A stretch of DNA of 19,266 bases from a virus (taxonomy: Duplodnaviria > Heunggongvirae > Uroviricota > Caudoviricetes). Numbering within the stretch: the first letter of the stretch is position 1; each line of letters opens with the position of its first letter. A program made the position numbers and the translations under genes. The notes under the pieces are model-generated. The model searched no databases, was not told where the DNA came from, and saw only the letters and a list, made by a program, of their open reading frames with translations. This document shows, piece by piece, positions 1 to 4,142 of the stretch. The DNA lies in the IMG/VR virus record IMGVR_UViG_2778261453_000019, one strand, 5' to 3'.

Positions 1-996
1 CTAACGAACCAGCCAGACCAGCATCAGGATAATCGCGACTAACAGTATCCACAGCGCGGGACGCGTTGCCATATTTTGCAACGTGTCCATCATCGGTGGA
101 AAAGGATTAAGCAGCGGTTGCATATCACGCGGATCAATCCCTTTAACCCGCCGTTGATAAAGCTGATTAAGAATATCCTCGGCCTGGGCAGAAGAAAGCG
201 ATGATTGCGCAGAAAGACCATATTTTTGCTGGATATACGCCGATAACGCTGCCAGTTCACTGGCATCTAAAGGTTGTTTTAGCGCCATCTGTAGTGATTC
301 CAGTGTCGGCGTATTTTGCTGGCTTAGCGTCTGACGCGCCTGTAGCCAGGTCACCAGATGGTTAAACAGTTTCGCTGGAATTAACTCGCCATCTTTCACC
401 CCGGAAAGTTCCAGCATCGATTGCCAGATCTGTTTGCTGGGTTCCCCCGTTGCCGCCGCAAGTTTGGTCACCAGCTGTTTAAGCGCATTGTGCTCCGCCG
501 GTAATAAAGGACGGTCGGTCGCCTCGCGCTGCTGCGGTTGCGGAATAACCATCTTCCCTTCCTGCAACAGGGTGAGAATGGTTTTTAATTGCTCCGGTGA
601 GAGCTGATTCAGCGGCGTCTGACCAAAGTTATGACGGATATAATCCGTGACCGCCTGACGATTATTCCCCAGACGTAAATACTCCCCTAATTGCGCTAAA
701 AGCTGGCGGGCAGAATGGCTTTTTTGCGCGGCCAGCAGACGTTGCGCCAGGTTGTGTTCAGCGGCAGGGAAGTGACGCGAAAGCAGCGGTGAATCTCCCG
801 ACAGACCAATATCGTGCCTGATACCCGCCCACAGTTCTGCTCTTTGCTGTTGCGTCAGTGAGGTCACTTTCGTCATTAAGCTTTCCAGCGAAGTACGTTG
901 CTGACTGGATAAAGGCTGATTGCCCGCGCCAGACGGCAGGTTATCTCCCTGACCTGGTGGTTGCCCAGGAGGAGGGCCGGAAATAGGTTGTATCAT
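1..996 (-). CDS. flk: Flk flagellar regulator (host chromosomal gene) with C-terminal membrane anchor
   Basis: 331-aa ORF recognised from memory as enterobacterial Flk (MIQPISGPPPGQPPGQ... with hydrophobic C-terminal anchor ALWILLVAIILMLVWLVR); host-like composition; stop codon at window positions 1-3. Confidence 0.8.
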   Translation of the reverse strand: MIQPISGPPPGQPPGQGDNLPSGAGNQPLSSQQRTSLESLMTKVTSLTQQQRAELWAGIRHDIGLSGDSPLLSRHFPAAEHNLAQRLLAAQKSHSARQLLAQLGEYLRLGNNRQAVTDYIRHNFGQTPLNQLSPEQLKTILTLLQEGKMVIPQPQQREATDRPLLPAEHNALKQLVTKLAAATGEPSKQIWQSMLELSGVKDGELIPAKLFNHLVTWLQARQTLSQQNTPTLESLQMALKQPLDASELAALSAYIQQKYGLSAQSSLSSAQAEDILNQLYQRRVKGIDPRDMQPLLNPFPPMMDTLQNMATRPALWILLVAIILMLVWLVR

Positions 997-1200
997 TACG
1001 TATCCTTATACCTGAAATCTTCGCAAGTATGCCTGGCCGCGAGATTATGGCACACTTGTCCGGTTAACTCTCGTCTCATACAGGTAACACAAACGTGAAA
1101 ATCCTTGTTGATGAAAAAAACAAAGATTTAATTTATTGATATAAAAGGATTTGTATCAGCGTATGTCCACGCAGTGACCACATTTTCGAGAGGTAGAGTA

Positions 1201-1220
1201 AGCCCGCAACATTGCGGGCT
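1201..1220. terminator. Perfect 9-bp inverted repeat (AGCCCGCAA / TTGCGGGCT) immediately 3' of the methyltransferase stop; terminator-like hairpin, orientation ambiguous
   Basis: Palindrome read directly; followed on plus strand by TTGTCTT, on minus strand no U-tract. Confidence 0.45.
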
Positions 1221-1225
1221 TTGTC

Positions 1226-2017
1226 TTATGGTTCGATCGCCGTTTTGAGCCGTTGTGTTGCTACATCAAAATAATGATCACTGGTTTCTATACCAATAAA
1301 TTTGCGTCCTGCTTTCAGTGCAGCCACACCCGTTGTCCCTGACCCCATAAAAGGATCAAGGACTGTTCCGCCACTATTCACAGTCCTGACCAGTTCCGCC
1401 ATTAGTTCTTCTGGTTTTCCGGTCGGGTGCATTTTCTTTGACGGGATAACCGGGAACGTCATGCAGCCGTCGAACGGTCCCGAAGGCGATTTATCTAAAT
1501 GGCCTTTGCTGCCCCAGACGATGTATTCGCACTGATGCCGGAAATACCCGGTATGTGGTGTTCGTGACCCCCTCCCTTTGTTCCACGCAATAATGCCGCG
1601 CCATGTAAAGCCACTGGCCTGAAACGCATCGGTTAAAGCTGGTAGTTGTCGCCAGTCAGTAAATACCAGGGCATAACCGCCCGGCCTGACTGCGCGGTGT
1701 GCCTGTGCCATCCATAATTGTGTCCAGTAAGCCCACGAACGGGCGTCCATGTTTTCACCCGCGAACCCATCAAAGCGGTGAAGGTTCTCGCCGTTCAGAT
1801 ATTTTGCATGGCTGCCCTGGTTGATGCGTCCGGCCTTGTGTGTCGCCCCCGAACTGTAAGGCGGGTCAGTGATTAAGGCATCAATGCTTTCTGGCTCAAT
1901 CAGCGGCAATATTTCCAGCGCATTCCCACGACAGAGCATGGCATTGTCAGTCTGATAAACCTTAGTGTGTTCCGGTGTATGTGCTGGTTGGTGCTGGATT
2001 GCGATCCCCACGGTCAT
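1226..2017 (-). CDS. DNA methyltransferase, beta-class (motif IV DPPY N-terminal, motif I DPFMGSGTTG C-terminal); probably N6-adenine specific, orphan (no cognate endonuclease in window)
   Basis: 263-aa ORF containing DPPY at residues ~51-54 and FMGSGTTG near the C-terminus; motif order IV before I defines beta group; true start could be the internal ATG at 1939 (MLCRGN...). Confidence 0.85.
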   Translation of the reverse strand: MTVGIAIQHQPAHTPEHTKVYQTDNAMLCRGNALEILPLIEPESIDALITDPPYSSGATHKAGRINQGSHAKYLNGENLHRFDGFAGENMDARSWAYWTQLWMAQAHRAVRPGGYALVFTDWRQLPALTDAFQASGFTWRGIIAWNKGRGSRTPHTGYFRHQCEYIVWGSKGHLDKSPSGPFDGCMTFPVIPSKKMHPTGKPEELMAELVRTVNSGGTVLDPFMGSGTTGVAALKAGRKFIGIETSDHYFDVATQRLKTAIEP

Positions 2018-2159
2018 AACTCCTCATGTGTGTGGGGTGCTCGATGGCTCTCGTTATCTGGTTAAGTGTTTTGCAGCGCGGACATTTTATTTCAATGTAG
2101 TGAAATGAGGCGCGGGCAAGTAGTTTGTTGCAATTTTTGCATCGTACATTTTGCGTCAT
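1962..2159 (-). CDS. com: Com-like zinc-finger translational regulator (phage Mu Com family)
   Basis: 65 aa from the ATG at 2159 (AGAGG SD 7 nt upstream); CKNCNKLL...IEIKCPRCK closely matches recalled Mu Com (CKNCNKLL...IEIRCPRCK); 3' end overlaps the methyltransferase start by 56 nt as com overlaps mom in Mu. Confidence 0.75.
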   Translation of the reverse strand: MTQNVRCKNCNKLLARASFHYIEIKCPRCKTLNQITRAIEHPTHMRSYDRGDRNPAPTSTYTGTH

Positions 2160-2204
2160 TTGCGGCACCTCTTGTGTGGTTACTGCTGCCGATATGATAA
2201 CAAA

Positions 2205-2242
2205 TCGATCGTTTTTATCGATCGGATTTATTGCATCGATCT
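2205..2242 (-). promoter_or_regulatory. Cluster of three GATC (Dam) sites inside three ATCGATC heptamer repeats, 48-82 bp upstream of com start; candidate methylation-sensitive promoter/operator
   Basis: GATC at 2207-2210, 2220-2223, 2238-2241, each within ATCGATC; position upstream of com-methyltransferase operon. Confidence 0.5.
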
Positions 2243-2271
2243 GTTATGCCTATTGCTTATGGATGGGGATA

Positions 2272-2306
2272 CCAAAAAGAAAACCCGCAGTTTTTACGCT
2301 ACGGGC
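2272..2306 (-). terminator. Rho-independent terminator downstream of hok-like ORF (minus strand hairpin CCCGTAGCG..CTGCGGG followed by TTTTCTTTTTGG)
   Basis: Stem-loop plus U-tract read on minus strand. Confidence 0.55.
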
Positions 2307-2363
2307 TTGTTGTTCATGTCTGTGAGATAGGGTGCCTTATCGACCTTACCCTGGCAACCGATT

Positions 2364-2394: not shown

Positions 2395-2535
2395 TTACTG
2401 CTTACACTGTAAGAACGCCGCAAACTCCGCTCCCCAGAAGCTCATCCGTATTTCACACAGCGAACCGTGCAGCATCCAGATGATGAGGATTACCGTCACG
2501 CAGAACGTGATGGCCGTAAGCGATTTTTGCGACAT
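2395..2535 (-). CDS. Hok/Gef-family type I toxin-like small membrane protein (46 aa)
   Basis: Unlisted small ORF MSQKSLTAITFCVTVILIIWMLHGSLCEIRMSFWGAEFAAFLQCKQ: one N-terminal TM helix, SLCEI and E-x-AAF-L-x-CK motifs matching recalled HokA/Hok signatures; AAAGGAG SD 8 nt upstream; structured leader with a short upstream ORF (mok-like). Confidence 0.6.
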   Translation of the reverse strand: MSQKSLTAITFCVTVILIIWMLHGSLCEIRMSFWGAEFAAFLQCKQ

Positions 2536-3071: not shown

Positions 3072-4142
3072 CTATCTATAGTCTTCCCATGAGTTTTCAT
3101 CGACACAAAATTCAATACCAGCATCCAGTCCATTTATGTGCAAATTAAACTCATCATTGATAAACTGGCCTTCGTCTATTTCAAAGAATAATTCTAGTTC
3201 TACTGTAAAATCCTTTTCCTCCTCCTCGTGATTAGATACGGTGTCAAAGGTATAAAATTTTCCATCCTCTTTGTCATAATAGCCGTTTGCGGTATCAGGT
3301 CCGCTGGCAGTGACATTAAAACTAACAGTAACATCAAAAGTAATTTGACAACTTTCGTCATCCAAATGAATTATTTTGGGTTCGAATTCGCTTATGTTCG
3401 TAATTTCAAAGCTATCAATCTCTGAGTCTTCCCATGTTGAAGAATTATAAGCTTCAGCAGTTTCTAATTCTTCCGTTAATTTTTGTATGATTTCTTCATT
3501 TTTGCTTTCTAAAAAACGTTCTATAAATCCAGTTCTTTCGTCATTGTGTTTGTTGTAATCATCTAGTAGTAAGTTTAGTGCTCCTATAATTATGAAATTA
3601 TCATTGTCTTCACAGTAACCTTTTAGGTCAGGGTCTTCTGAAACCACATAAATTTTTTCATTATCTCCTAGCGCGGAACGTATTGCTAAAAGAGTGAAGG
3701 CGTCTCGAAATTCGTTAGGTTTTTTCGCACTAAAGGGGCTTTTTTTATCAAAGTACATGTCTATAACCTCATTGAGGTCCACCTTCGACATATCTACAAT
3801 AGTTGTGTTTGAGTCCTCCATGAAACCATTAAATGCGCTTAATGCCTTTTCTTGAATGTCTGTTTCATTAATTTCACAAAATAGATTTTTAATATTGTCA
3901 TCTTCATATTCTTTGAGGATAACAGCCTTTCGTCGGAAATTGTTAATCCCTTTCAATGCTTCTTGTATATGCTCTATGATTTTTCGTTCAACTTCTTTAA
4001 CTACAATTGTTGTAGAAATATGCCTGAACTCATCATTTCTACATAGTTCTTCAAATGATTTTATAGTTTTTGAGTTGAAGTCCAGGTTTGCTTTTACAAA
4101 AAACTCAGTATCAATGAATACATTGCGGGTAACTAGAGACAT
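3072..4142 (-). CDS. AT-rich cargo protein of unknown function (356 aa); N-terminal domain with PIN-like acidic-residue pattern (tentative), highly acidic C-terminal domain; candidate defence/exclusion moron
   Basis: Long ORF with strong SD (AAAGGAG 8 nt upstream of ATG at 4142); visibly AT-rich versus flanking phage genes; inserted between D and ogr, which are adjacent in P2. Confidence 0.85.
   Translation of the reverse strand: MSLVTRNVFIDTEFFVKANLDFNSKTIKSFEELCRNDEFRHISTTIVVKEVERKIIEHIQEALKGINNFRRKAVILKEYEDDNIKNLFCEINETDIQEKALSAFNGFMEDSNTTIVDMSKVDLNEVIDMYFDKKSPFSAKKPNEFRDAFTLLAIRSALGDNEKIYVVSEDPDLKGYCEDNDNFIIIGALNLLLDDYNKHNDERTGFIERFLESKNEEIIQKLTEELETAEAYNSSTWEDSEIDSFEITNISEFEPKIIHLDDESCQITFDVTVSFNVTASGPDTANGYYDKEDGKFYTFDTVSNHEEEEKDFTVELELFFEIDEGQFINDEFNLHINGLDAGIEFCVDENSWEDYR

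Follow-up and report, generated by a model that had tools for sequence, protein, structure and literature searches.

The com–methyltransferase locus

The element described here is a two-gene module, in which a com gene is followed by an overlapping DNA methyltransferase gene, on a 19,266-nt stretch of viral DNA (IMG/VR record IMGVR_UViG_2778261453_000019). This stretch is referred to as the window and supplies all coordinates unless another locus is named; the features of the module all lie on its minus strand (Table 1). The first gene encodes a 65-aa zinc-ribbon protein, and a 68-aa open reading frame (ORF) that begins with GTG represents the same frame. The protein matches the Pfam family Zn_ribbon_Com (PF10122) with an E-value of 9.5e-12 and 44.6 bits (cut-off 22.9), as well as PHROG 13819, annotated as "gpCom control of modification", at 2e-17. 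In an alignment with Com of phage Mu and two other sequences, the zinc-ribbon cysteines (CxxC...CPRC; C7, C10, C26 and C29) are invariant. Identity to Mu Com reaches 53% when the proteins are aligned globally and 59.5% across the core aligned by tblastn, residues 3-43. By these measures the protein is a true homologue of Mu Com, and it is predicted to act as an RNA-binding translational activator.

RefSeq records annotated by PGAP (e.g., NZ_CP120549.1) name this protein "Com family DNA-binding transcriptional regulator" and the neighboring enzyme "DNA-methyltransferase". The former name looks like a systematic misnomer, because the characterized Mu protein is an RNA-binding translational activator.

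Table 1. Positions of the module's genes and control elements, and of surrounding features, in the 19,266-nt window
Feature	Position	Strand	Basis or remark
flk, host gene	1..996	-	NCBIfam equivalog PRK10715, 2.3e-152
GC-rich hairpin just 3' of the methyltransferase stop, at or near the prophage/host junction	1200..1221	.	Plus-strand score; minus strand lacks a T-run
Orphan beta-class N6_N4 DNA methyltransferase	2017..1226	-	263 aa from AUG 2017, 261 aa from GUG 2011
com, 65-aa Com-family zinc-ribbon protein	2159 (ATG)..1962 (stop end)	-	Pfam PF10122 and PHROG 13819
Translation-inhibition hairpin CCCCAC-N20-GUGGGG	2006..2037	-	Encloses the methyltransferase Shine-Dalgarno sequence (GAGGAG, 2025..2020), AUG 2017 and GUG 2011
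Predicted Com target motif CCAUCGAG (CC-N3-GAG) on the mRNA	2040..2047	-	Within the com coding sequence, codons A-I-E
com Shine-Dalgarno sequence AAGAGG	2168..2173	-	8 nt before the ATG; read from the sequence; kept in the alignment of com leaders
Predicted sigma-70 promoter TCGATA-16 nt-TG-T-TATCAT (extended -10)	2194..2221	-	Consensus scan 9/12 plus TG
Dam/OxyR-type operator ATAG-N8-GATC-N14-GATC-N9-GATC	2207..2253	-	Two to three OxyR-like half-sites
Intrinsic-terminator-like hairpin with T-run	2271..2308	-	Closes the upstream hok-like unit and sets the com–methyltransferase operon apart
hok/mok-like toxin ORF, directly upstream of com	2535..2395	-	Pfam HOK_GEF 3.7e-7; PHROG 251 "MokW-like host killing" 2.5e-23
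PIN_12-domain ORF, 356 aa, between the Ogr/Delta gene and gpD	4142..3072	-	Pfam 1.3e-20

The methyltransferase

The product of the second gene matches Pfam PF01555 (N6_N4_Mtase) at 3.4e-33 and 115.9 bits (cut-off 26.7), PHROG 67 at 4.4e-80 and the PADLOC model MTase_II at 1.6e-63. Its motifs follow the beta-class order, with DPPY at residues 51-54 preceding FMGSGTTG at residues 223-230, and both the catalytic and the S-adenosylmethionine-binding motifs are intact. The nearest solved structure is that of a compact adenine methyltransferase from Helicobacter pylori (5hek, 7.8e-21), which aligns over nearly the full length; N4-cytosine enzymes also match, at 1.5e-12. The predicted target is N6-adenine, since adenine is indicated both by the DPPY motif and by the best-matching enzymes of solved structure. 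The true start of the enzyme may be the conserved GUG at 2011 and not the AUG at 2017, because a GGAG-type Shine-Dalgarno sequence stands 7-8 nt before the GUG of GUGGG in all enterobacterial com operons compared.

An earlier note on this DNA, which described a Com-like ORF overlapping by 56 nt the start of a beta-class enzyme with DPPY and FMGSGTTG motifs, proved correct: the overlap spans 1962..2017, and the profile matches of both proteins agree with it. The same holds for its statements that the cargo of com is a methyltransferase in place of mom and that no restriction endonuclease adjoins it, since the cargo matches N6_N4_Mtase only and its neighbors are flk, com, the hok-like toxin gene and the Ogr/Delta gene (ogr).

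Several other identities were considered for the enzyme. M.EcoGII was rejected as a relative, being a 349-aa enzyme from a different prophage type whose paper makes no mention of com. Membership in the Hia5/Hin1523 family was also rejected; those enzymes are Dam-like (D12), and the window enzyme has no D12 match and clusters apart from D12 cargo. It is not Mom (Pfam PF25680), as Mom-type cargo forms a separate cluster. Nor does it fit a type II restriction-modification system, given its neighbors and the occurrence of relatives alone next to host genes. A literature search for methylomes of P2-like prophage methyltransferases returned nothing useful.

A predicted translational gate with conserved elements

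In phage Mu, the RNA target of Com has been defined by systematic evolution of ligands by exponential enrichment (SELEX) and selective 2'-hydroxyl acylation analyzed by primer extension (SHAPE) as the sequence 5'-CC(N)2-3GAG-3' within a small hairpin. Immediately 3' of this hairpin is a translation-inhibition structure, the stem of which contains the GUG start of mom (PMC6483171). Counterparts of both elements are found inside com of the window, where the spacing between the motif CCAUCGAG and the CCCCAC...GUGGGG hairpin is exactly 11 nt. The hairpin occurs in the minimum free energy fold of a 101-nt region and, folded alone, reaches -13.2 kcal/mol vs -8.7 kcal/mol for Mu.

The 11-nt register is shared by the window, Mu and the loci L003 and L005-L009, and it is fixed in 8/8 enterobacterial com operons irrespective of whether the cargo is Mom, an N6 methyltransferase or a C5 methyltransferase. 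Motif, register and stem occur together in Mu, L008 and L009, which carry Mom; in L003 and L007, which carry a C5-cytosine methyltransferase; and in L005, L168 and L170, which carry an N6 methyltransferase in Salmonella or Yersinia. The com loci of Neisseria have another stem, GCAUCC/GGAUGC, around an AUG, which is consistent with a conserved mechanism. The Mu-like translational arrangement proposed in the earlier note is thus supported by the homology of Com, the CC-N3-GAG motif, its register and a hairpin as in Mu.

A Dam/OxyR-type operator fused to a predicted promoter

The GATC sites upstream of com start at 2241, 2223 and 2210 on the minus strand, corresponding to positions -82, -64 and -51 relative to the com ATG. 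As the earlier note had reported, every one of them is part of an ATCGATC heptamer, read as GATCGAT on the minus strand; its comparison with the Dam sites of Mu mom is also upheld by the layout and the OxyR score described below. No further GATCGAT occurs in the window. The sites are spaced 18/13 bp in the window and 18/13 bp in Mu mom (-109, -91, -78), while agn43 of E. coli (L047) has 19/13 bp. In all three, ATAG stands eight nt ahead of the first GATC. With 44 GATCs in 19.3 kb, a spacing of exactly 18/13 would arise by chance with a probability of about 3.5e-4. Clustering alone says little, because three GATCs within 31 bp somewhere in the window have P about 0.09. The tetranucleotide is under-represented in the window (44 observed vs 70.6 +/- 7.7 expected; 44 or more in 200/200 dinucleotide-preserving shuffles), and this window-wide scarcity makes the operator cluster stand out more.

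Resemblance to OxyR sites was scored against two half-sites of the consensus ATAGxTxxxAxCTAT, as quoted in PMC2909390, with a maximum of 20. The segment 2253..2207 scores 15/20, the top value in the window, compared with 13-14 for the validated Mu site and 14-16 for agn43. According to the literature, OxyR is kept from binding upstream of mom when Dam has methylated the three GATCs located there within 43 bp. The triple is kept in Salmonella (L005) and Yersinia (L168; methyltransferase 72% identical), and in the alignment the operator persists from Escherichia to Salmonella and Yersinia even as the flanking sequence diverges. In the Yersinia relative, the second site reads GATCGTC, so that the full GATCGAT heptamer is not kept. 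The triple is confined to com loci of Enterobacterales and is absent from 35 com loci of other phyla or classes, which fits a host that has both Dam and OxyR.

A predicted sigma-70 promoter of the extended -10 type overlaps this operator. A -10-like hexamer is found at the equal alignment column in relatives: TATCAT in L005 and L168, TATACT in L007 and TATAAT in L170. Because operator and predicted promoter overlap, OxyR would be expected to occlude the promoter directly, as in agn43 and gtr.

The GATC cluster might instead act without OxyR, with methylation affecting RNA polymerase directly as it binds the -35 element and spacer or working through SeqA as in IS10 and P1 cre, or it might be a neutral remnant of a Mu-like ancestor. 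Such readings gain from the position of the second GATC in the predicted -35 element and of the third in the spacer, from the modest rarity of clustering as such, and from relatives in which the sites are reduced to a 13-bp pair (L003, L007, L170) or to one GATC (L006). They are nevertheless decidedly improbable, as the 18/13 spacing and the ATAG prefix agree with two proven OxyR sites (identically in Mu mom, at 19/13 in agn43), the operator has the highest OxyR-consensus score in the window, and the site persists in three genera despite diverging flanks.

One relative carries a shortened operator. In the com–methyltransferase variant at L006:2870-3000, a 31-bp deletion between GATCGAT repeats 1 and 3 leaves one GATC and a single OxyR half-site, making it a candidate OxyR-blind allele. 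The assembly concerned is labeled Vagococcus sp. WN89Y, and the enterobacterial prophage in it looks like contamination or mislabeling.

The 5' leader of com also holds the 9-mer TAACCACAC (2170-2178, minus strand), which occurs in Mu as well (L002:409-417). The Mu copy closely follows the third GATC, around the C site and -35 element of the mom promoter, and its distance differs from that in the window. This sharing may be a remnant of common ancestry, or it may be due to chance, with a likelihood of about 1-2% for two 60-nt regions.

Proposed mechanism and the evidence against it

Taken together, the features described above suggest that the module is quite probably a mom-analogous cassette for late self-modification and self-protection, a moron situated at one end of a P2-like prophage, in which a Dam/OxyR transcription gate and a Com translation gate control an orphan N6-adenine methyltransferase. 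Transcription would start from the sigma-70-type extended -10 promoter (2221..2194), whose -35 element and spacer lie inside an OxyR-type operator with three Dam sites. Judging from an operator laid out identically in sequence to those of Mu mom and agn43, OxyR would bind and cover the promoter as long as the GATCs are unmethylated or hemimethylated, a block that full methylation by Dam would relieve. The bicistronic mRNA would yield Com first, as the com ORF and its Shine-Dalgarno sequence indicate. The start of the methyltransferase would remain locked in the CCCCAC...GUGGGG hairpin inside the com frame until Com binds CC-AUC-GAG 11 nt upstream and opens it, allowing initiation at AUG 2017 or GUG 2011; both cis elements are conserved with Mu, where this mechanism has been demonstrated. 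By analogy with Mom and Hia5/Hin1523, the enzyme would then methylate adenines of the phage DNA, with host DNA as a collateral target, and would so protect the progeny from restriction. On the same analogy, the two gates would keep an enzyme that may be harmful switched off for the rest of the time.

Several observations weigh against this interpretation. The promoter of the module is a consensus match and has the standing of a prediction. Late-lytic timing is left unexplained, because the region lacks a late-activator site of either the Mu C or the P2 Ogr type; an Ogr-type late promoter (TGT-N12-ACA) was sought by eye upstream of com and was not found. At the RNA level, the 101-nt region folds no better than shuffled sequences (z = -0.78), so the hairpin is argued from its conservation, and covariation is lacking because the stems are invariant among enteric loci. 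The small Com-binding stem of Mu, AUGC/GCAU, is weaker in the window, where it reads GAGC/GCAC with an A-A mismatch. Translational coupling without Com binding could contribute as well, because ribosomes on com traverse the hairpin. Finally, Com gating is not obligatory for this methyltransferase family, since close relatives occur without com: one from E. coli (P0003, 80% identical) directly follows ogr, and one from Salmonella (P0012, 62%) lies in a Mu-like lysis operon.

In an alternative reading, the module is expressed in the lysogen and is phase-variable in the manner of agn43, with Dam and OxyR competing after replication to set a heritable ON or OFF state. The methyltransferase would then define a prophage "phasevarion", and, were the enzyme also to methylate GATC or ATCGAT in its own operator, the ON state could reinforce itself. 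This alternative draws on the overlap of the operator with the -35 element and spacer of a reasonable sigma-70 promoter, which leaves no room for a Mu C site, and on a GATC layout equivalent to that of agn43, a proven phase switch. In the gtr operons, too, GATCs are paired at a distance of 13 bp, each pair inside a single OxyR half-site and one site lying over the promoter (PMC2909390), and the non-specific enzyme Hia5 methylates GATC (PMC3299994). PMC2909390 also notes as unknown whether mom expression itself varies in phase. The alternative is considered unlikely, since comparable prophage methyltransferases are silent in lysogens, the GATCGTC site of the Yersinia relative argues against ATCGAT as the enzyme's own target, and the Com gate suggests a product that is meant to stay tightly off. 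In its most specific form, an activator-independent promoter within the OxyR/Dam operator has replaced the C-dependent one, creating a bistable, agn43-like switch that is ON in a subpopulation of lysogens and not late in the lytic cycle, and thereby an E. coli prophage phasevarion; this version is rated as rather improbable.

Prophage context and neighboring genes

The com–methyltransferase module is the last transcription unit of a P2-like (P88/Xuanwuvirus-like) E. coli prophage and lies beside its attachment junction. This placement follows from the host gene flk on one side and from the phage genes beyond com on the other, where a profile search identified a hok-like toxin gene, an Ogr/Delta zinc-finger gene, a PIN_12 ORF, gpD, tail sheath and tail tube. 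As flk abuts the prophage, the attachment junction must fall within 997..1225; a tRNA scan at the attachment site found none. In phage Chuche, the integrase gene comes after the methyltransferase, across attP.

The hok–com–methyltransferase trio moves as one in E. coli, phage Chuche and Yersinia kristensenii (L168). A scan of the window against Rfam revealed no known RNA family at the com–methyltransferase locus. The sole hit lies elsewhere, in the tail-fiber region of the prophage, and is a full-length match to IS009 (RF02111; 10577-10775, minus strand; 182 bits, E 3.4e-44).

The PIN_12 ORF is relevant to the question of whether the methyltransferase is an orphan at all, because the enzyme could represent the modification half of a restriction or defense system with a partner nearby, such as this PIN_12 protein. 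The proximity of the PIN-domain ORF, 1 kb from the methyltransferase, and the match of the latter to the PADLOC MTase_II model would accord with such a system. However, com, the terminator, hok and ogr stand between the two genes, and the ORF has no match in PADLOC, PHROG or NCBIfam. It is also absent from the otherwise identical module of Chuche and from the Yersinia locus, the latter having hok, com and the methyltransferase alone next to host genes, and in the surveyed com loci the methyltransferase always accompanies com and not a nuclease. A two-component system of this kind is therefore highly improbable.

The PIN_12 ORF is not present at the corresponding position in phage Chuche and may be an uncharacterized moron or defense gene in a hotspot of P2-like phages.

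Distribution and portability of the cassette

The whole module is 96.9% identical in Escherichia phage Chuche, where its genes are annotated as "gpCom control of modification" and "DNA methyltransferase". At least 80% of the module is present in 171/5,426 complete E. coli genomes. To place it among other com loci, a Com pattern scan with one genome per species yielded 42 loci, and the cargo scan covered 37 overlapping or downstream ORFs of at least 108 aa. DNA-modification enzymes account for 24 of these 37, comprising eight beta N6_N4 methyltransferases, eight Dam-like D12 enzymes, six Mom proteins and two C5 methyltransferases. Com thus emerges from this diversity of cargo as a portable gate for DNA-modification enzymes.

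Overlap of com with a C5-cytosine methyltransferase gene is seen at L003:2400-3707, in a Mu-like E. coli prophage inserted in an Stx2c phage, and at L007:2900-4207, in a Mu-like prophage of Citrobacter braakii. Both of these genes have a GUG start in a CCCCAC...GUGGGG hairpin and lie behind an operator with two GATCs 13 bp apart. No mention of such an enzyme as com cargo was found in the com literature examined.

The operator motif also occurs outside com loci. Scanning IMG/VR for ATAG-N8-GATC-N14/15-GATC-N9-GATC identified at least 120 contigs, and 27 of the matches listed precede com. About 31 of the matches listed lie about 58 nt upstream of genes for Cor superinfection-exclusion lipoproteins, in opposite orientation and on the ATAG-proximal side. 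The Cor-linked motif is strongly conserved, reading ATAGaTTtAAcAGATCAATAtt....AATTGATCGTTTaAAaCGATC, and is found at L050, L062, L063, L071, L095, L106, L110, L120 and about 23 more loci, where the Cor proteins measure 77-83 aa and match PHROG 1119 at 4e-26. This arrangement points to a Dam/OxyR switch, one that may be phase-variable, as the control of cor genes in lambdoid prophages. A literature search on Dam/OxyR control of cor found no report.

Implications

If the proposed wiring holds, a silent, doubly gated adenine methyltransferase is present in about 3% of complete E. coli genomes (the 171/5,426 noted above), one gate being host-epigenetic (Dam/OxyR) and the other a phage RNA-binding protein (Com). 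This would bear on the question of why such prophage methyltransferases go unseen in the methylomes of lysogens, and also on how P2-like phages might escape restriction upon a change of host. The control module formed by Com, the translation-inhibition structure and OxyR would then constitute a portable cassette found on at least four unrelated modification enzymes, namely Mom, beta N6, D12 N6 and C5. The practical value is modest, consisting of a candidate enzyme and a small, naturally occurring gate with two inputs, and no new class of biology is involved.

The combination of com with a swappable modification gene is already published for FluMu, B3 and KS5, and this exact module is already annotated. 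What appears to be new is incremental, namely the full Mu-type operator and translation-inhibition module on a beta-class methyltransferase in enterobacterial P2-like phages, together with the apparent fusion of the operator to the promoter.

Comparison with known systems

The closest parallel is the com–mom operon of phage Mu, for which the region L002 was used. The two systems share a homologous Com, the overlap of com with the modification gene and a position at the very end of the phage genome. In both, 11 nt separate a CC-N3-GAG motif from a downstream CCCAC...GUGGG hairpin containing the Shine-Dalgarno sequence and the GUG, and the operator has the form ATAG-N8-GATC-N14-GATC-N9-GATC with identical spacing. 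They differ in cargo, which is a Rossmann-fold beta-class methyltransferase in the window and the Mom acetamido-transferase (Pfam Mom) in Mu. The distance from the last GATC to the com ATG is 51 nt in the window and 78 nt in Mu. Missing from the window is a segment of 27-45 bp that is present in Mu, L008 and L009 and that in Mu holds the C-activator site and the weak T-run promoter; in its place the -10-like TATCAT directly follows the third GATC. The elements themselves are also different, as that of the window is P2-like (Ogr/Delta, gpD, FI/FII) and lacks Mor and C, whereas Mu is a transposable phage.

A second group comprises FluMu, Pnm1 and an island of Haemophilus aegyptius, in which com is followed by the non-specific adenine methyltransferases Hin1523, Nma1821 and Hia5, respectively, as well as phage B3, in which com precedes a Dam-like enzyme (PMC3299994). 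These elements resemble the window in having a methyltransferase in the position of mom behind a com homologue and in the broad protection from restriction proposed for them. Possible Com sites have been described at the 5' ends of the methyltransferase genes, and the adenine methyltransferases that take the place of mom are silent in lysogens (PMC3299994). In contrast to the beta N6_N4 enzyme of the window, these enzymes are Dam-related (D12, alpha-type) and form a separate cargo cluster; Hia5 has been grouped with Dam, DpnM and T4 Dam (PMC3299994). Moreover, they are carried by Mu-like elements of Pasteurellaceae, Neisseriaceae and Pseudomonas that lack the GATC triple.

With regard to phage type, methyltransferase family and the com–methyltransferase overlap, the nearest systems are the P2-like phages KS5 of Burkholderia (gp21/gp20), Smp131 of Stenotrophomonas (gp05/gp04) and Chuche (CDS0013/0014). 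In KS5, a "Com translational regulator" gene overlaps that of an N4/N6 methylase (PMC3091744). The methyltransferase of Smp131 is 47.6% identical to that of the window, but Smp131 has no GATC triple of 18/13 spacing, and its module lies beside the portal gene and not at the ogr/att end. All three systems are known as annotation only, with no published regulatory analysis.

For the operator, agn43 (flu) and gtr are among the closest counterparts. The former has three GATCs spaced 19/13, with ATAG 8 nt upstream and an OxyR site over the promoter and start region, and the latter has pairs of GATCs 13 bp apart in one OxyR half-site. Phase variation, a possibility in the window, is demonstrated for both of these systems, which control surface antigens and have no translational gate.

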